Assembly: GCF_032116555.1 (NCBI RefSeq) | Contig: NZ_CP134949.1 | Location: 1,922,001-1,986,000, forward strand | DNA: 64,000 bases | Source of the DNA: Halorarum halobium | GTDB lineage: Archaea > Halobacteriota > Halobacteria > Halobacteriales > Haloferacaceae | Direction: 5' to 3' | Part shown: positions 18,802 to 60,104 of the stretch, piece by piece | Layout: each line of letters opens with the position of its first letter | Numbering within the stretch: the first letter of the stretch is position 1 | Notes under the pieces: model-generated | Databases searched by the model: none | Seen by the model: the letters and a program-made list of their open reading frames with translations, nothing else | Told to the model about the DNA's origin: nothing | Program-made: the position numbers and the translations under genes

Positions 18802-18921
18802 TCGACAGCCCCGCGGCTGTCGGCTCCGGGGCCCCGCTGCGCTCCTCGGCCTGCGGCCTGCGGTGCTCGTCCCTCGCACGCGTCCGCTCGCACTCCTCGG
18901 GGTTCACCGTCACGCGCGCCA
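18802..18921 (+). repeat. Short (internally deleted) copy of the intergenic hairpin-repeat family
   Basis: TCGACAGCCCCGCGG...CCGCTGCGCTCCTCG...GGCCTGCGGTGCTCGTCCCTCGCACG (identical string at ~55255-55280)...CGCGCGCCA. Confidence 0.8.
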
Positions 18922-33540: not shown

Positions 33541-34757
33541 GCACGCAGGTGCCACTGAGCATCTCCGAGGACACCATCCACACCATCTCGGAGGAACGAG
33601 GCGAGCCCGAGTGGCTGCTCGAACGCCGCCTCGAAGCGTTCCGCGCGCTCGAGGAGCTCGACCTGCCGGACGTCATCCAGACGCCGGGCCGCCGGTGGAC
33701 GAACCTCGAGGACCTCGCGTTCGAGGAGTTCGTCGACCCGCTCGACCAGCGCGACGAGACCGAGCGCGTCACCGCCGAGGGCGCGGAGGTGCTCCCGTTC
33801 ACCGACGCGCTCGACGAGCACGAGGAGCTCGTCCGCGAGCGCTTCGGCTCGGTCGTCGACCCGGAGACGAACTACCTGACCGCGCTCTCGGCCGCGCTGT
33901 TCACCACCGGCACGGTGATCCACGTCCCCGACGGCGTCGACGCCGAGGACGTGAAGATCCGCGCCGAGATGAACAGCGGCTCGCTGTTCAGCCACACGCT
34001 CGTCGTCGCCGGGAGCAACGCCTCCGCGACGATCCTCGAGCGCGTCTCGAACGGCGAGGACACTCCCGCCGACGGCGACGACCGCCGCTACTTCAGCAAC
34101 GTCGTCGAGGTCGCGACCGACGAGAACTCGTACGTCCAGTACGGCTCGCTCCAGAACCTCGACGAGGACGTCTACACCTACTCGCTGAAGCGCGGCGACG
34201 CCGCCCGCTACGCGACGATCAGCTGGATCGAGGGCAACCTCGGCTCCCGCCTCACCCGCTCGGACATCGAGACGGAACTGGACGGCGACTCCTCGGAGAC
34301 GAAGATCGTCGGCGCCTTCTTCGGCCACGACGACCAGCACTTCGACGTCAACGCCCGCGTCTGGCACAACGGCGAGCACACGACCGCCGACCTGGTGACA
34401 CGCGGCGTGCTCGACGACGAGGCGCGCTCGGTGTACGAGGGCGTCCAGGACGTCGGCCGCGAGGCCTGGGACACCTCGAGCTACCAGCGCGAGAACACGC
34501 TGATGCTCTCGGACGAGTCCGAGGCCGACGCCTCCCCGAAGCTCATCATCCACAACCACGACACCGAGGCGTCCCACTCGGCCACCGTCGGCCAGGTCGA
34601 CCGCGAGGACCTGTTCTACATGACCTCGCGTTCGATCCCGCCGCGGACCGCCCGGAACATGCTCGTGGAGGGCTTCTTCGTGCCGGTGCTGGAGGAGGTC
34701 GAGGTCGACGAGCTTCGGGATGACATCCAGGAGCTCATCGCGCAACGGCTGGACTGA
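33537..34757 (+). CDS. sufD: Fe-S cluster assembly protein SufD
   Basis: SufB paralogue with PKLIIHN and HSATVGQVD...LFYM; ATGA overlap with sufB. Confidence 0.93.
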   Translation: MSTQVPLSISEDTIHTISEERGEPEWLLERRLEAFRALEELDLPDVIQTPGRRWTNLEDLAFEEFVDPLDQRDETERVTAEGAEVLPFTDALDEHEELVRERFGSVVDPETNYLTALSAALFTTGTVIHVPDGVDAEDVKIRAEMNSGSLFSHTLVVAGSNASATILERVSNGEDTPADGDDRRYFSNVVEVATDENSYVQYGSLQNLDEDVYTYSLKRGDAARYATISWIEGNLGSRLTRSDIETELDGDSSETKIVGAFFGHDDQHFDVNARVWHNGEHTTADLVTRGVLDDEARSVYEGVQDVGREAWDTSSYQRENTLMLSDESEADASPKLIIHNHDTEASHSATVGQVDREDLFYMTSRSIPPRTARNMLVEGFFVPVLEEVEVDELRDDIQELIAQRLD

Positions 34758-34841: not shown

Positions 34842-35196
34842 CTCGAAAGCCCCCTGCCGTGCATGGTTCAGTGGGCGGTGCTGGAGTCGCTGCGACTGCC
34901 TCGAAACCCCCCGCGGGGTTCGGCTCCCGCGAACCGCGATGCGCGCATCGGCTCACTACGTTCGCCTACGGTGCTTGCGGGTTCGGGGTTCGCCGAGCCC
35001 CGCGGCCCCTATCAGTCCCACCCAGACCGCACCGCACAGCCACACGCCTCCCTTACGTCGGAGCACGCTCCTCGGAACTCACCCTCGCTTCGCTCGCGTG
35101 AACAGCCGATTCGCTCGGTCGGCTCGCTCCGCTCGCCAGCTCTCACTCATCCCTCGCGCGATTCGGCCGCCCACGAGGGGCGGCCGCCGCGCGCCA
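34842..35196 (+). repeat. Full-length copy of the intergenic multi-hairpin repeat element
   Basis: Duplicated CTCGAAA(G/C)CCCC head, stem CGCGGGGTTCGGC...GCCGAGCCCCGCG, TCAGTCCCACCC, CCGCACAGC, TCGGAGCACGCTCCTCGGAACTCACCCTCG, TCCCTCGC, CGCGCGCCA; collinear with 54749-55313. Confidence 0.88.
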
Positions 35197-54287: not shown

Positions 54288-54620
54288 TTACTCGAAGTCC
54301 TCGTACTCCGGCTCCTCGCCCTCGGGAACCGCGTCGGTCTCGCCGGTCGGCTGGTCGAGGTTCTCCGCCTCGCTGCCGGCGTCCTCGTCCTCCTCCCAGC
54401 CGTCTGCGTCGTCTTCAGGGCCCCATTCGTCCGCTTCGGATTCGTCCGCTTCGTGTCCCTCCCCACCGTGTCGCTCCACCTCGACTTCGACCTCGATCCC
54501 GACGCCGTCGACCTCGAGTTCGGCCTCCGCCTCCGTGACGTCGCCGACCTCGATCTCGAGTTCGTCCTCGTCCACTTCGACCTCGACTTCCACGTCGACG
54601 CTGAGTTCCGCTTCCGACAT
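54288..54620 (-). CDS. Hyper-acidic low-complexity protein
   Basis: MSEAELSVDVEVEVEVDEDELEIEV...; GAG/GAC/GTC codon usage typical of the host. Confidence 0.65.
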   Translation of the reverse strand: MSEAELSVDVEVEVEVDEDELEIEVGDVTEAEAELEVDGVGIEVEVEVERHGGEGHEADESEADEWGPEDDADGWEEDEDAGSEAENLDQPTGETDAVPEGEEPEYEDFE

Positions 54621-54844
54621 GGATGCGAGTACGTGTTCATCACGCTTCAGCGTTTTCGCCGTGATTGGATTCAGGCGCCGGTGTAGGCTGTCGCTGTCGT
54701 CCTCACGGTAGTCGGGTTTCGTGTCCGTTCGGTCTCTGTGTCAATCGTCTCGAAAGCCCCCGCGGTTCTCGGCTTACGTGTTTGATCGCGGTCGGTTCGG
54801 CCACCTCGAAAGCCCCCGCGGCGCTCGACTCGGTGCGGCCGCTG

Positions 54845-54901
54845 TCGTTCGAAAATCGAAGAGTTTCGTGATGACGAAAGGCGCTCGCGCCTTTCGAACC
54901 A
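54845..54901 (+). mobile_element. 57-bp hairpin cassette (TCGTTCGAAA...TTTCGAACCA), putative tiny non-autonomous element
   Basis: Splits CCGCTG|CGCTCCTCG, which is intact at 18834-18848; an inverted relative lies at 55099-55214. Confidence 0.65.
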
Positions 54902-55098
54902 CGCTCCTCGTCACTCGGCTCGCTGCGCTCGCCTGCGGTGGTTGTCGGTCCGCGCCTGCGCCGACTTACGGGAGAGCACGCTCTCCTGAATTCACGGGCG
55001 CAAGCACCCGTGAACGCCGCGGCCCCTTTCAGTCCCACCCGCCGCACAGCACCTCACCCTCCCTTCCCTCGGAGCACGCTCCTCGGAACTCACCCTCG

Positions 55099-55214
55099 TG
55101 GTTCGAAAGACGCCAGGGCGTCTTTCGTCAGTACGGGAAACCGACGGTTCCCCGTCAGCGGTCGGATTCCGTCGGAATCCGACGGCATCACGAAACTCTT
55201 CGATTTTCGAACGA
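55099..55214 (-). mobile_element. 116-bp inverted copy of the same cassette with two extra hairpins
   Basis: The reverse complement matches both ends of 54845-54901; splits ACCCTCG|CTYCGCTCGCGTGA, which is intact at 35081-35101. Confidence 0.65.
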
Positions 55215-55464
55215 CTCCGCTCGCGTGAGCAGCCTCCTGCGCGTCTCGACCTCCGGCCTGCGGTGCTCGTCCCTCGCACGAGCGGCCGCGCTCCGCGCGA
55301 ACGTCGCGCGCCAGGTGGTTTAGTCGGGAAGAGGCGCGGGAATTCGGAGAGGTCAGGCCGGCGATTCGGATGGAAAGCCTCTGGCCGCCGTCCGGTGCAG
55401 GCGAGTGACCGCCACCGTTCCGGTACCCGGAGATACAAGCGTCCTGGCCGCCGTTCCTCGGAAC

Positions 55465-57372
55465 ATGTACCGACGCGACATGCGCGACACGAGCGCGGAC
55501 GACCTGCTCGCGGCGATGGCGAGCGCCGACGCGGTCGTCCAGGCGGCCCCCTCGCCCGACGGCGACTCGGTGGCCTACGCGAAGTCCCGCGAGGGGCGGA
55601 TCGACCTCTGGTGCTGGGACGGCGAGACCGACACGCGACTGACGAGCGAGGGGATCACGGCCCAGCGCTACGGCCGCGGCGACCCCGCGTGGTTCGACTG
55701 GCACCCCGACGGCGGCGAGGTCGCGTTCGTCGACGCCGACGGGTCGCTCTCGACGGTCGACGTCGACACCGGCGAGGTAACCGCGCTCACGACGGCCGAC
55801 GAACCGGACCTCGGCCTCGCGTACGGCCCCGACGGCGAGGAACTCGCGGTCGTGACGAACCGGTTCTCGCGCGCCTCGCTCGCGCTCGTCGCGGCCGACG
55901 GCTCCCGCGTCGAGGCGCTCGCGGACGACGAGTTCCTCTATCAGGACCCCCGATTCGCCGAGGACGGCACCGTCTACGCAGTGCGAGCGCGCCACCGGGA
56001 CCTGTTCGACTACGAGGCGGCGCTGGTCCGCGCGGACCGCGACGGCGTGACGGAACTGTTCGGCCCCGATGGCGTCCGCGTCCAGAACGTCCGCCCGCGA
56101 CCCGGGAGCGACGAGGTGGCGTTCGTCCACGACGCATCGGGATTCGACGCGGTCGCGGTACTTGACGGTGAGAGCGCGGCCCGCGACGGCGGCAGCGACG
56201 ACGACGGCGACGATATCGACGATGGCGACGGAAGGGTGGAGCCGGAGGAACTGTACGCGGTCGAGGGTGCGGAGGTCGCCGACCCCGCCTGGAGCCCGTC
56301 CGGGAAGTCGCTCGCGGTCACCGTCACCGAGGACGCCGCCGCGAACGTCCACGTGCTCGACCGCGACGGCTTCAGCGACGTCCTCACCGACGAGCGCGCG
56401 TTCCACACCGCGCCCCGGTGGCTCGACGGCGACGTGATCACGGTCCGCGACACGCCACACCGGCCGCCGACCGTCCGGAACGCGAGCGCGGGCGAGCGGG
56501 TGACCCCGACAGCCGCGCCCGACTTCGGCGCTCGAATCCCGACCCCGGAGACCATCACCTACCAGTCGGGCGACCGGGACGTCCAGGCGGTCGTCTACCC
56601 GCCGGGTCCCGAGTCCGGGGACGACTCCGTCCCGGTGCTCGTGAAGGCCCACGGAGGACCGACCTCCTTCGACCGCTTCCGCTTCGACCACCGCGCTGCG
56701 TACTTCGCCGCGCTCGGCTACTGCGTCGTCCTCCCGAACTACCGCGGCAGCGACGCGTACGGCCGCGAGTTCCGGATGGCGAACGACCGCGACTGGGGCG
56801 GGGGCGACCTCGAGGACGTGATCGGTGCCGCGGACGCGGCCGCGGCGGCCTACGACGCGGCCGATGGCGACCGCGCGGGCATCTACGGCGGCTCCGGCGG
56901 CGGGCTGATGACGGTGAACGCGCTCGGCAACTCGGACCGGTTCCGCGCGGGCGCAGCGTTCTACGGCGTCTACGACTACGAGACGTTCGTCGACGACACC
57001 GACGACGTCGGCTGGCAGCTGATGAAGCGCGAACTCGGCGACCTCTCGACCGACGTCGAAAACTACCGCGACGCCTCGCCCATCCGCACGGTCCCGGACA
57101 TCGAGGACCCGCTGCTCGTCCTCCACGGCGAGGACGACGCCCGCGTTCCGATCAGCCAGTCCGAACAGCTCTGCGATGAACTCGACAAGCACGGCAAGCG
57201 GTACGAGTTCCGCCGCTACGACGGCGAGCCGCACGGCTTCGGCGACCGGGAGAACGTCGTCGACGCCTACACGCGGGTCGCGGACCTGTTCGCGAAGTAC
57301 CTCGCCGTCGACCCCGACGACGGCTCCAGCAGCCCGCACGAGCCCGAGGAGCCGGACCGGTCGTCGAGCTAG
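55465..57372 (+). CDS. S9-family (prolyl oligopeptidase/acylaminoacyl) peptidase
   Basis: N-terminal propeller repeats, HGGP, PNYRGS, GGSGGG nucleophile, HGEDDARVP, GEPHGF. Confidence 0.93.
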   Translation: MYRRDMRDTSADDLLAAMASADAVVQAAPSPDGDSVAYAKSREGRIDLWCWDGETDTRLTSEGITAQRYGRGDPAWFDWHPDGGEVAFVDADGSLSTVDVDTGEVTALTTADEPDLGLAYGPDGEELAVVTNRFSRASLALVAADGSRVEALADDEFLYQDPRFAEDGTVYAVRARHRDLFDYEAALVRADRDGVTELFGPDGVRVQNVRPRPGSDEVAFVHDASGFDAVAVLDGESAARDGGSDDDGDDIDDGDGRVEPEELYAVEGAEVADPAWSPSGKSLAVTVTEDAAANVHVLDRDGFSDVLTDERAFHTAPRWLDGDVITVRDTPHRPPTVRNASAGERVTPTAAPDFGARIPTPETITYQSGDRDVQAVVYPPGPESGDDSVPVLVKAHGGPTSFDRFRFDHRAAYFAALGYCVVLPNYRGSDAYGREFRMANDRDWGGGDLEDVIGAADAAAAAYDAADGDRAGIYGGSGGGLMTVNALGNSDRFRAGAAFYGVYDYETFVDDTDDVGWQLMKRELGDLSTDVENYRDASPIRTVPDIEDPLLVLHGEDDARVPISQSEQLCDELDKHGKRYEFRRYDGEPHGFGDRENVVDAYTRVADLFAKYLAVDPDDGSSSPHEPEEPDRSSS

Positions 57373-60104
57373 GTTTCGGCGTCGAGCGCCTGTGCGATCC
57401 GGCGGTCCGCCTGTGCCACGCGGCGTTCCACGAGCGTCCCGAAGTTTCCGGGCAGATCATCGCCAGTTCGTTCGACGGCGTCCAGAACGGCAGAGAGCGC
57501 CGACCGAAGCTCGCGGAGCTGCCGGTCGGCCTCCTCCCCGTCGCCGTTCTCCGCCGCCGCGGCGGCGCGGGCCGCACGTGTGGTTGCCTCCCGGAGCGCG
57601 CCGAGCAGGTCCACGAAACCGCCGAACGGACCGCCTCCGGCGTCGCTACCGCCGTCCTCGGTTCCGTCACTCCCGCCGTCCTCGGTTCCGTCACTCCCGT
57701 CGTTTTCGGTTCCGTCACTCCCGTCGCCACCGTCTCCGGTGCTCGTCGTTCCGGTGCCCGGACTCGTTTCGGTCTCGGATCCGTCGGTCGGGGTGTCCTC
57801 CCGGAACGGACCGTCCTCGCCCCGGTAGTTCAGGTCGTCGAGCACGCCGCCGTCGCTCTCCGTCCCGTTGAGCAAACTCTCGGCCGTCCCTTCGGCGGTC
57901 GTCTCTCCGGCGGTCGTCTCTTCTGCGGTTCGAACGACGTCCTCGCCCGCGTCCGAGACGCTCGTCACGACGTCGCTCGTGTCGGTCGTCACCGCCTCGG
58001 TCGCGTCTGCGACGTCCGTCCCGTCGACCGCGTCGTCGGTCGTTCCGTTCAGGAGTTCGTCGCCGTCGGTGTCGTTCGGAAGATCGTCGCCGTCCGTCCC
58101 GTTGAGGATCCCGTCGTCCTCCGTCCCGTTGAGCAAATCGTCGCCGTCGGTCTCGTTCAGCAGGTCGTCGCCGTCCGTGTCGTTCGACACGCCGTCACCG
58201 CCGACGGTCCCGTTCGTCAGCATCTCGACCGTCGAGAGCGCGCCCTCGACGGCGTCGGTGGCCGCCTCGGTCGTCCGCTCGGCGGTGTCGTCGGGCGCCG
58301 CGGCCCCGTCGATGGCGTCGATGCCGTCCTCCGCGACCGCGACCGCCTGCACCAGCGTCTCCGAGAGGAGCGTGTCGAGAAAGTCGACGAGCGCCGCCTT
58401 GCCGGTCCGCAGGTCCTCGACCGTGGCGGTCGCCTGGTCCGCGTCCGGGTTCACCCGGAACGCGCCGACGTCGCCGTTCCGGTCGGTCACCTCCGCCGTG
58501 AACGCGCCGGCCCGGTGGACGTACAGGCCGAAGCCGCCGTCCTCGTCTTTCGGCGGGCTGCCGGCGTAGACGGCCCCGGCGAAGTCGTCCTCGACGGTGA
58601 CCGCCGCAACGGTGGGGTCGCCGGACCCGCCGCCGGCCCGTACCTTCACCGCGTCCTCGTTGGGGGCGAGGACGAGCGCGCCGTCGGCACCCGCGGCCGT
58701 CGTTCCGCCCTCGTCCCCGCGTTCGAACGTCTCTGCGTAGGGCGCGACGCCGGGCGCGTTCACCGTGAGCCGGTGGTCGCCGGCCGGGACGTCCCGGAAC
58801 GCGGCCACGCCGCCCCAGGTCGGGACGGCGACCGGATCCGACTCAAGCCGCGCGACGCCCTCCGTGCGCGGGCTCCGGGTGTCGACGCCGTTGCTGCCGG
58901 GCGCTTGCGTCGACTCGGTCGCCTCGCGGACGGCGCCGACGACGTTCCCGAGCGTCCCGGTGAGATCGAGATCGTAGCGCTCGGTGAGCGCGTCCCTGTG
59001 GATCGGGTCGGTCACGTCCGCCGCCGGGTTCTCGAACCGCGGCTGGGTCCACGGCGTACCCACCGAGGTGAGGTGTGAGGCGACGGCGTCCTCGGCGAAC
59101 CCCGGGACGGCGAACTGGAAGCTCAACTGTGGGCCGGTGAACGCCTCGACGTGGCTCACCTCCCCGACGTGGACGAGGGCGTAGGTGCCGTCCGCGGCGT
59201 CGGCCTCCGGGTGGCGTTCGGGGCGGAGGTGCAGGCCGTCCTCGCGGGTCGGGAGCTCCGAGGGCGGCGAGTCGTACTCGTCGAACGAGTCGACGGTCAA
59301 CTCGCCGGGAACCAGGTGCTCGCGCGTGACGTTCGGCAGCTCCGGCAGGTCGTACACCGGGGTCCCGTCGAGCTCCGGGACGGCGTACGGGAGCGGGATG
59401 CCCTCGTCGCGGGGCAGGCCGTAGGCCGCCGGGATGTCCACCAGGTCGAGCACGCTGTTCGTGATGTCGGCGATGCCGCCGTCGAGCGGGAAGCGCTGGA
59501 ACGTCTCCCTGTCCGCGTTCACCCCCAGCGCGCTGGAGTGGCTGCCGACCTCCGAGATGATCGCCGGCCGGTCGAGGTCGGGGTCGAGGAACTCGTTGTT
59601 GGGCACCTTCCGCGAGTGGGAGCTCGCGACGAACAGGACGGGCTCGTCGCGTTCCAGGTCGAAGAAGACGTGGAGCACCTCCCAGTCGTGCCAGTGGAAG
59701 TTCACCGAGAACTGGTCGAACGCCGAGTAGAACCAGAACTGCACGACGCCGAGGTCGGTTCCGGCGTACGTCCGGCCCTGATAGAACGACGTCGGTGCCG
59801 GCGGCGACCCGGATTCGGAGAGCTCCCTCGCGTAGCCGTCGAACGCGTCGAACCCGGTGACGACGGTCCGGCCGTCGTCGGTCTCGGACGCGTAGCGTCG
59901 CGGATCCGTCGGGTACCACGCCTCGCCCGCGCCGAAGTGCAGGTCGGGCGCGAACCGGTCGGCAAGCCGGCGCTCCCGCTCGGCGTCCATCGCCTCCGTC
60001 TCGGGCGCCTCGGACGTGCCCGTTCCCGAGAGCAGCACGCCGGCGCCGATGGCCGCCGCTCCCGCCGTTCCCCCCACCAGCAGCTTCCGTCGCGTAAGTT
60101 CCAC
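57369..60104 (-). CDS. Large Tat-exported protein with NPP1/Vps62-like N-terminal domain and NxT-rich acidic repeats
   Basis: GTG start, LTRRKLLVGG Tat leader; FAPDLHF...QFWFYSAFDQFSVNFHWHDWEVLHV; repeats DDLLN(E/G)TDG and DGGSDGTE. Confidence 0.75.
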   Translation of the reverse strand: MELTRRKLLVGGTAGAAAIGAGVLLSGTGTSEAPETEAMDAERERRLADRFAPDLHFGAGEAWYPTDPRRYASETDDGRTVVTGFDAFDGYARELSESGSPPAPTSFYQGRTYAGTDLGVVQFWFYSAFDQFSVNFHWHDWEVLHVFFDLERDEPVLFVASSHSRKVPNNEFLDPDLDRPAIISEVGSHSSALGVNADRETFQRFPLDGGIADITNSVLDLVDIPAAYGLPRDEGIPLPYAVPELDGTPVYDLPELPNVTREHLVPGELTVDSFDEYDSPPSELPTREDGLHLRPERHPEADAADGTYALVHVGEVSHVEAFTGPQLSFQFAVPGFAEDAVASHLTSVGTPWTQPRFENPAADVTDPIHRDALTERYDLDLTGTLGNVVGAVREATESTQAPGSNGVDTRSPRTEGVARLESDPVAVPTWGGVAAFRDVPAGDHRLTVNAPGVAPYAETFERGDEGGTTAAGADGALVLAPNEDAVKVRAGGGSGDPTVAAVTVEDDFAGAVYAGSPPKDEDGGFGLYVHRAGAFTAEVTDRNGDVGAFRVNPDADQATATVEDLRTGKAALVDFLDTLLSETLVQAVAVAEDGIDAIDGAAAPDDTAERTTEAATDAVEGALSTVEMLTNGTVGGDGVSNDTDGDDLLNETDGDDLLNGTEDDGILNGTDGDDLPNDTDGDELLNGTTDDAVDGTDVADATEAVTTDTSDVVTSVSDAGEDVVRTAEETTAGETTAEGTAESLLNGTESDGGVLDDLNYRGEDGPFREDTPTDGSETETSPGTGTTSTGDGGDGSDGTENDGSDGTEDGGSDGTEDGGSDAGGGPFGGFVDLLGALREATTRAARAAAAAENGDGEEADRQLRELRSALSAVLDAVERTGDDLPGNFGTLVERRVAQADRRIAQALDAET

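Follow-up and report, generated by a model that had tools for sequence, protein, structure and literature searches.

What kind of element occupies positions 54,749 to 55,313 of the window, the 64,000-nucleotide stretch of the Halorarum halobium genome analyzed here, and how did its relatives come to lie at two other places in the same window? A sequence-only reading had described the three loci as a non-coding, nested and modular repeat family spread in trans, and had proposed either a structured RNA or a relative of the repetitive extragenic palindromic sequences (REPs) and bacterial interspersed mosaic elements (BIMEs). Our analysis supported the family as such. As to its nature, we favor a hairpin core of single-stranded DNA (ssDNA) that was amplified long ago as a MITE (miniature transposable element with inverted repeats) of the IS6 type, the copies in this lineage now being without ends and remodelled in place, and we put the probability of this account at about one half. 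Below, G000 denotes the H. halobium genome, other G numbers denote other genomes, and L numbers denote sampled loci.

A hairpin family of the Halobacteria

Blastn searches with the three copies of the window returned 159 loci in G000 (156 on C1, three on C3 and none on C2), confirming that further copies exist genome-wide, well in excess of chance. Profile hidden Markov models (HMMs) of two unit types, the core and unit U, recovered 136 loci that span 29.9 kb, or 0.8% of the genome. The core extends from GAAAGCCCCC to GGCCCCTTTCAGTCCCACCC, with a long stem in between; unit U consists, in order, of CCTCCCCAGCC, a stem, TCCCTCGCRCG, another stem and GCGCGCC. Among the HMM loci, 39 hold core and U, 31 the core only and 36 U only, and the other 30 are mostly doublets; U thus occurs without the core and also as tail-to-tail doublets. 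Two unit types and inverted doublets with short linkers bear out the BIME-like architecture that had been proposed, and the predicted intergenic bias is equally clear, with 95 of 96 motif-anchored units overlapping no called gene. No family copies lie in two 100-kb chromosome bins of low GC (56% and 61%).

An exact 19-mer of the core was found in 109 of 301 Halobacteria genomes and in 46 of 80 genera, at 0 to 64 copies per genome, and its reversed pattern, used as a control, in none of the 301. The family is therefore present in at least a third of the sampled Halobacteria. All of the 80 matches listed by a GTDB-wide scan were Halobacteria, and phage and viral collections held no match to the family. 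In the portions of the mostly open-access literature that were covered (including PMC7002104 and PMC13343696), the family is undescribed beyond two general categories of Haloquadratum, palindrome-associated transposable elements (PATEs) and small mobile repeats (SMRs), and an IS6 MITE named MITEHarch3.

The conserved part of the core is a rod of ~110 nt. In a set of 48 cores of similar length, out of 65 found, 94.9% of cells were paired, and 140 compensatory changes were counted as compared to 41.9 in shuffles and 24 to 61 with slid partners; one-sided (wobble) changes were scarce (19 cells vs. the 140 double changes). On the minus strand, which is rich in purines, 35 of 163 triloops have the form cGNAg; the plus strand has 11 of 163 and the remaining intergenic DNA 71 of 3812, which makes an ~11-fold enrichment on one strand (minus). 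Among tetraloops, cUNCGg was found once in 124 and GNRA seven times in 124, as against 152 of 3960 in the background. GCGNAGC is an exceptionally stable, nuclease-resistant DNA mini-hairpin that occurs at phage and plasmid single-strand origins and in the N4 promoter (PMC13037366). Rfam, searched at its gathering threshold, matched only tRNA in the window, with chance matches over the element at 54,749 (E 2.5 and 9.2). Because of the loop census, with its rare cUNCGg and enriched DNA-type triloops, and the absent Rfam match, the structured-RNA option is disfavored. The core loops point to DNA rather than RNA, and the rod likely folds as ssDNA.

IS6-type ends and the copies without them

What is new is that, in other haloarchaea, the core lies between IS6-family ends. 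At L303, inverted repeats enclose it and are themselves flanked by an exact 8-bp direct repeat. Intact IS6-family elements (L334 and L343) have identical 17-bp termini and exact 8-bp target-site duplications (TSDs), in agreement with ISH29 and ISHarch12, whose published 17-bp terminal inverted repeats (TIRs) start with GG and are accompanied by 8-bp TSDs (PMC6807381, Table 5; PMC7986276). TIR-like sequence was found upstream of the head, the motif that opens each copy, at 31 of 114 loci of other genomes vs. 88 of 2130 background windows, with peaks at -52 (9 loci) and -39 (6 loci). TIR-like ends on both sides were seen at 30 of 120 loci, including four with an exact 8-bp TSD (L053, L157, L158 and L303) and three with one mismatch. 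In G171, both TIRs border 16 of 25 sampled copies, and the head lies exactly 52 nt from the left end in 15; TSDs of the 16 copies were exact in two and had one mismatch in three, the overall range of 0 to 6 mismatches being that expected for ageing copies. The TIR-bounded elements are 129-490 bp in length, typically 215-219 bp, and contain hairpins and no transposase gene. Since matching TIRs, fixed spacing and 8-bp TSDs are the anatomy of an IS6-type MITE, the core element is an IS6-type MITE in those lineages. The absence of TIRs that the sequence-only reading had reported accordingly holds for the H. halobium genome and fails for the family.

In its TIRs, TSDs and lack of a transposase, the element of G171, G138 and several named genomes resembles MITEs of the IS6 family (ISH14/ISH29 group); the copies of G000 differ in having no detectable TIR or TSD, and the covarying interior rod exists also without IS6 ends. 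At L025 the core lies within an IS6 remnant, and at L339 (1180-1420; G297) an intact IS6 ends 37 nt before the head, with its TIR in the orientation opposite to that of the MITE. Two IS6-family MITEs, MITEBth2 and MITEHarch3, are listed in ISfinder, at 227 and 336 bp (PMC6807381; PMC7986276). MITEHarch3, known here by name and length alone, may belong to the family. The IS6-type ends provide a concrete candidate transposase, testable in Haloferax volcanii, which carries the core on pHV4. A separate observation concerns L072-L078, where a 25-bp tandem unit 3' of the core includes GTGTTCAG; this sequence is the middle portion of the IS6 terminus and faces away from the core.

In the account that we favor, a gene-less element would have been moved in trans, long ago, by an IS6-family transposase, and the copies of G000 would descend from such MITEs, fast turnover of the flanks having erased their ends. 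Comparison with the genus mates G001 and G002 bears on this history and on the mobility that had been proposed from the window. Of 30 loci taken from these two, 10 were syntenic with G000; six of these sites are occupied, three hold a head remnant (by eye) and a single one is empty. Most copies of G000 are therefore old and inherited, nine of the ten syntenic sites being common to the genus mates. Occupied orthologous pairs differ by collapsed cores and different inserts, and the core deletion in orthologues runs between its repeated CGCGG arms. At an orthologous site in genus g31, the core is 98.8% identical among seven species, while the adjacent 70 and 45 nt are only 64% and 79% identical and 500-nt windows in the neighboring genes are 94.5% and 87.5% identical; a 25-bp unit in the flank varies from one to three copies between species. 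The site in G334 is only seemingly empty and retains a right-end remnant. With copies this old and flanks that change this fast, ends would be lost, and descent of the G000 copies from MITEs is plausible.

The g31 gap, between carboxypeptidase-like and M20 peptidase-like genes (L072-L093), is a hotspot at which unrelated inserts are found, with the hairpin element in some species, a small gene (G318 and G319) and foreign DNA of 1.8-5 kb (G166, G052, G231, G069 and G320). The 1.8-kb insert of G166 and G052 has no element motif and was dropped from consideration. Among sequencing runs no close strain was found (best share 0.14) and no RNA data were listed, four metagenome runs yielded no usable junction, and the GC skew of G000 gave no clear origin.

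Several observations weigh against amplification as an IS6-type MITE. No TIR pair was found in G000, where upstream scores exceeded 8 in 10 of 96 windows at scattered offsets, with a background of 4%, and the search around its units gave no TIR peak either; a weak TIR-like stretch, at -42, was seen only in a leader subclass of seven copies. The G000 copies are not filed as intact MITEs because no TIR or TSD signal rose above background. A TIR pair was likewise missing from 62 sampled copies of G001, G002, G182 and G225, and from 90 of the 120 loci sampled overall. Right arms of 19 solo cores of G000 were unlike the MITE arm and TIR of G171 in a comparison trained on 21 sequences (-25.9 vs. -26.6 for shuffled sequence; -17.0 vs. 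-17.8). G000, which is 99.9% complete, has no IS6 transposase (no match to PF13610), and the presence of IS6 does not track copy number, as it was found in 11 of 17 genomes rich in copies, in 8 of 15 without any, and not in G171. Folding energy failed to separate DNA from RNA, and of the three copies in the window (A, B and C, in order of position) A and B are no more stable than shuffles (z -1.1 to +1.3), copy C reaching z -6 to -9. Compensatory changes in DNA inverted repeats can also arise by template-switch repair, without selection. Finally, the conservation of the core is unexplained by IS6 mobility, because a DDE-type MITE needs no covarying internal rod.

These same gaps lend some weight to a different history, in which the core and unit U would have been dispersed without TIRs; as ssDNA hairpins of the REP/BIME or PATE kind, they would have been nicked and re-inserted by some other enzyme, IS6 capture having come later and in few lineages. 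Five copy-rich genomes without TIRs, the inverted doublets and mosaics, the right arms of G000 that are unrelated to the MITE arm, and an insert (S1, below) that leaves no duplication would all fit. So would the AAAG found 5' of the stem foot, since AAAG is the left guide of IS608 (PMC3201880) and real haloarchaeal IS605 ends also start with AAAG or CAAG, followed by CCCC. However, AAAG at the foot of the core stem pairs with CTTT, unlike an unpaired guide. G000 has no Y1 transposase and one lone tnpB, TnpA is present in six of 15 copy-rich genomes and in seven of 15 that have no copies, and the available parts of the literature report for archaea the IS200-type subclass of Y1 enzymes only, with RAYT-type subclasses unreported (PMC6006769; PMC8266576; PMC3733652). 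The core matched 4 of 78 tnpA/tnpB loci, and in the two that were inspected the insertion sequence has its own ends with the core outside them; an origin of the core as an IS605 end was therefore rejected. IS110 was absent from all five genomes tested, G000 included. Among 418 neighboring proteins, judged by sequence clusters without a family scan, no nuclease or transposase family recurred, and the only large cluster was the plasmid oligonucleotide-binding (OB)-fold family described below; nor was a RAYT-like linked gene seen among 14 genes flanked by motifs on both sides, which are housekeeping-like by sequence, without a Pfam scan. We regard such TIR-independent spread as somewhat unlikely. 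The sole tnpB of G000, a genome without tnpA, lies in a low-GC stretch adjoining a tRNA gene (L001, G000:C1:487290-490490).

The comparison with known hairpin families divides in the same way. Like REPs, BIMEs and the REPIN-RAYT systems, the family has many intergenic copies, inverted doublets with variable linkers, two-unit mosaics, conserved stem mismatches and long vertical persistence (PMC8266576; PMC6006769). In contrast to them, its units measure 110-150 nt rather than 20-65 nt, show no preference for the 3' ends of genes, and have GAAAG at the stem foot in place of a GTAG/CGTC tag. The REP/BIME-like assignment of the sequence-only reading thus stands for architecture only: the family is not a REP/RAYT system, because the defining Y1 transposase is missing both from the genome and from the vicinity of the repeats. 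The PATEs of haloarchaea are likewise palindromes without genes and extend past the palindrome by 20-50 variable nt; they too serve as SMR targets and lose the core through repeat-mediated deletion, which leaves terminal-only forms (PMC3119063). Unlike PATEs, the core is not an IS605 end at the loci checked and does not co-occur with TnpA; and while PATEs have no TIR or TSD, the family lacks them in G000 and has TIRs with 8-bp TSDs in G171 and others.

The three copies and their inserts

The ordered blocks that had been read in the window were found at the positions claimed, with heads at 18802, 34843, 34903 (variant GAAACCCCC), 54750 and 54806. TCAGTCCCACC is indeed restricted to the long copies (35012 and 55029); CCGCACAGC lies at 35032 and 55042, TCCCTCGCRCG at 18870, 35150 and 55270, and CGCGCGCCA at 18913, 35188 and 55305. 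By codon-model gene calls, all three copies are intergenic as described, copy C lying between a divergent acidic-protein gene (starting at 54620, minus strand) and an S9-like peptidase gene (55465, plus strand). Their lengths differ by whole modules, as had been suggested, and both the empty and the filled junctions were found exactly. Copy A has lost the linker and the core's 3' arm. The features are as follows.

54749..55313, plus strand: copy C, the entire composite, made up of the head array, a core that holds two inserts, the linker, and unit U with nested inserts
54752..54807, plus strand: extra head unit of copy C, 56 bp, with GAAAGCCCC, the start of the stem arm and a GT-rich leader; a member of the tandem array
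54808..55040, plus strand: core rod of copy C, GAAAG-CCCCC-stem-internal loops-apical hairpin-stem-GCCCC-TTTC, then AGTCCCACCC, from covariation on 48 cores and the loop census
54845..54901, plus strand: insert S1, short form, 57 bp, with inverted termini and two small hairpins, at GCTG^CGC without duplication
54966..55014, plus strand: insert S3', ~49 bp, with two hairpins and TTAC...GTGAA ends, lying within the core's 3' arm
55041..55057, plus strand: C/A-rich unpaired linker from core to unit U, read from the sequence
55058..55313, plus strand: unit U of copy C, CCTCCC...stem...TCCCTCGCRCG...stem...GCGCGCC
55064..55229, plus strand: insert S2 (~50 bp when empty), at CCC^CAG of unit U, carrying S1
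55099..55214, minus strand: insert S1, long form, 116 bp, at GGAG^CGA beside the mini-hairpin motif GCGGAGC
55130..55189, minus strand: S4, third-level insert in the long S1, ~57 bp, two hairpins; borders approximate, from short vs. long S1
34842..35196, plus strand: copy B, between convergent genes ending at 34757 and 35222
34845..34902, copy B: extra head unit of 58 bp
34903..35023, copy B: uninterrupted core, followed by the linker
35053..35102, copy B: empty S2 in unit U
18802..18921, plus strand: copy A, head fused straight to the right half of unit U

The TCAAT said to precede each copy is attributable to chance, as it occurs within 60 nt upstream of 5 of 96 copies. Protein coding was considered and discarded: head-to-3'-motif distances fall into all three classes modulo 3, and the array periods of 44-72 bp across lineages leave no place for a 19-codon repeat. 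With periods that vary and all three frames represented, a protein-coding reading was rejected.

The inner modules are separate insertion elements. S1 is present in 29 copies in both orientations, of 55-60 bp or, when carrying S4, of 111-116 bp with inverted termini (S1-long), and 28 of the 29 sit at WG^CG without duplication. In a raw count with no shuffle control, 23 of the 29 empty 16-nt S1 junctions exist unfilled elsewhere in G000, and by inspection 28 of the 29 copies lie inside family members. S2 was found 20 times, 15 times empty and five times carrying S1; S3 (7 copies) duplicates CG, and for S3' (8 copies) unfilled arms were seen in other units. Copy C is nested three deep, with S1 twice, S3', S2 and S4. 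In four other genomes, related modules occur within IS605 ends or within tnpA (L225, L231, L237 and L245). Small double-hairpin modules were also observed inside tnpA, at the same position near its N-terminus, in two genomes (L236/L237 of G171 and L245 of G178).

S1-long resembles SMR-A of Haloquadratum walsbyi (HqIRS42, 43 and 55) in its length of about 110 bp, inverted termini, lack of duplication and palindromic targets (PMC3119063). SMR-A elements insert into the palindromes of PATEs and IS605 elements, and their mobilization was called enigmatic in 2011 (PMC3119063). The likeness is to the published description; the modules here differ from it in also having 50-60-bp forms, third-level nesting and the CG-duplicating S3. 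We propose that they may be SMR-A-like parasites that recognize folded DNA and are moved by an enzyme other than those identified here. The mover would not be an IS200/IS605 TnpA, IS110 or IS6 enzyme, none of which was found in G000; IS4/IS5-type transposases gave three matches there, two of them with stops. Because S1 follows an exact target rule (WG^CG in hairpins, no duplication), the mobilization of SMR-A becomes testable.

The head reported as duplicated is so in both long copies, and belongs to a polarized array of tandem ~57-bp units, which decays outward. A second head was found 50-64 bp upstream in 29 of 96 units, 17 of them at exactly 57, 65-79 bp upstream in six (five at 72) and 107-121 bp upstream in five, the six other windows examined as controls holding 0 or 1 each. 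In G225, arrays have a period of ~52 bp and at least 7 units, with 25-26-bp arrays at the other stem foot. One of these (L421, G225:C1, ~454300-454650) places at least 7 near-identical ~52-bp head units, of two alternating types, before one core. Arrays of this type could be mis-called as CRISPRs; a CRISPR-like array was considered and rejected, as its spacers, the stretches that separate the heads, are mutually homologous and form subfamilies. The head arrays may have arisen by slippage or by self-insertion at the stem foot. Orthologous copies thus differ by small inverted-ended modules at fixed hairpin positions, by deletions between repeated arms and by tandem head units at the stem foot.

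The plasmid form and the remaining explanations

In other genomes, eight loci were found at 437-1178 bp upstream of members of one OB-fold family (seven of them within 437-558 bp), whose OB-fold Pfam match is below cut-off. This plasmid form is single-copy and occurs in many genera. The core precedes the OB-fold gene in three of eight annotated plasmid regions, two of them typed MPF_T; four annotated plasmid cores lie elsewhere, and in the pHV4 copy of H. volcanii IS110 interrupts this same flank. In G000, both full-length OB-fold homologues have a core variant 0.5 kb upstream. Single-copy cores at L161, L167 and L180 adjoin one large conserved protein, presumably similar to a conjugation ATPase, which is an impression from its unscanned sequence.

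In layout the plasmid form, a long hairpin with GNA mini-hairpins that lies in single copy ~0.5 kb before an OB-fold gene, that of a single-stranded DNA-binding (SSB)-like protein, resembles Frpo/ssi, which are promoters and priming signals of conjugative plasmids that act on single strands (PMC9849209; PMC13037366); Frpo2, for example, lies upstream of ssb on F (PMC9849209). The likeness is one of layout alone, and the element here is, in addition, a chromosomal repeat of >100 copies. As a weaker part of the account that we favor, the core may first have been a single-copy single-strand signal before an OB-fold gene of conjugative-type plasmids, and later captured by IS6. A fuller version, in which a Frpo/ssi-like signal of the plasmid leading region was captured by IS6 and spread through the chromosome, and in which three-level hairpin parasites insert at folded GNA mini-hairpins without duplication, moved by an undescribed ssDNA-hairpin recombinase, is offered tentatively, as we judge it improbable in its entirety. 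Should the plasmid form prove to be a promoter or priming site on single strands, early steps of haloarchaeal conjugation would become accessible through it; even if none of these prospects holds, the family is useful for annotation, since its hairpins attract spurious open reading frame calls (e.g., Halar_0093 over the core).

The plasmid form could also be read without any transposase. On that explanation, the core would be a working ssDNA signal (a priming site or promoter) from conjugative plasmids, selected on the chromosome, with copies gained through integration of plasmids or integrative and conjugative elements and through gene conversion. The single-copy form before an OB-fold gene in many genera, the core better conserved than the neighboring genes at the g31 site, and the position of Frpo2 and of mini-hairpins at known ssDNA origins (PMC13037366; PMC9849209) are in keeping with such a signal. 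Against it, the 19-mer is absent from 192 of 301 genomes, with counts between 0 and 64, the stem is lost entirely in orthologous copies, which also tolerate inserts, five of the eight annotated plasmid regions do not have the core upstream of the OB-fold gene, and the TIR/TSD-bounded copies show transposition in other lineages. We therefore think it quite unlikely. Least probable is a structured RNA, either non-coding or cis-regulatory, that was copied around the genome and may contain tandem G-A motifs rich in purines: strong covariation, strand-asymmetric purine-rich internal loops and high conservation at the orthologous site would suit it, but the loop census, the missing Rfam match, the scarcity of wobble changes and a near-random orientation relative to genes (upstream gene pointing away at 63 of 96 units, downstream gene in tandem at 54 of 96) do not.

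Three minor observations remain. In different families of Halobacteria, copies occupy the same gaps between genes (G000:C1:3151814 with L122; L044, L121 and L148; L050, L054 and L064), and such shared gaps are either very old insertions or preferred sites. An inverted module, GACTACC...GGTAGTC, recurs ~30 nt 3' of many solo cores in G001 and G000. Elsewhere in the window, a gene on the minus strand (57369-60104) encodes an acidic protein of 911 aa with 27-bp and 24-bp tandem repeats near the C-terminus (families D5 and D13).

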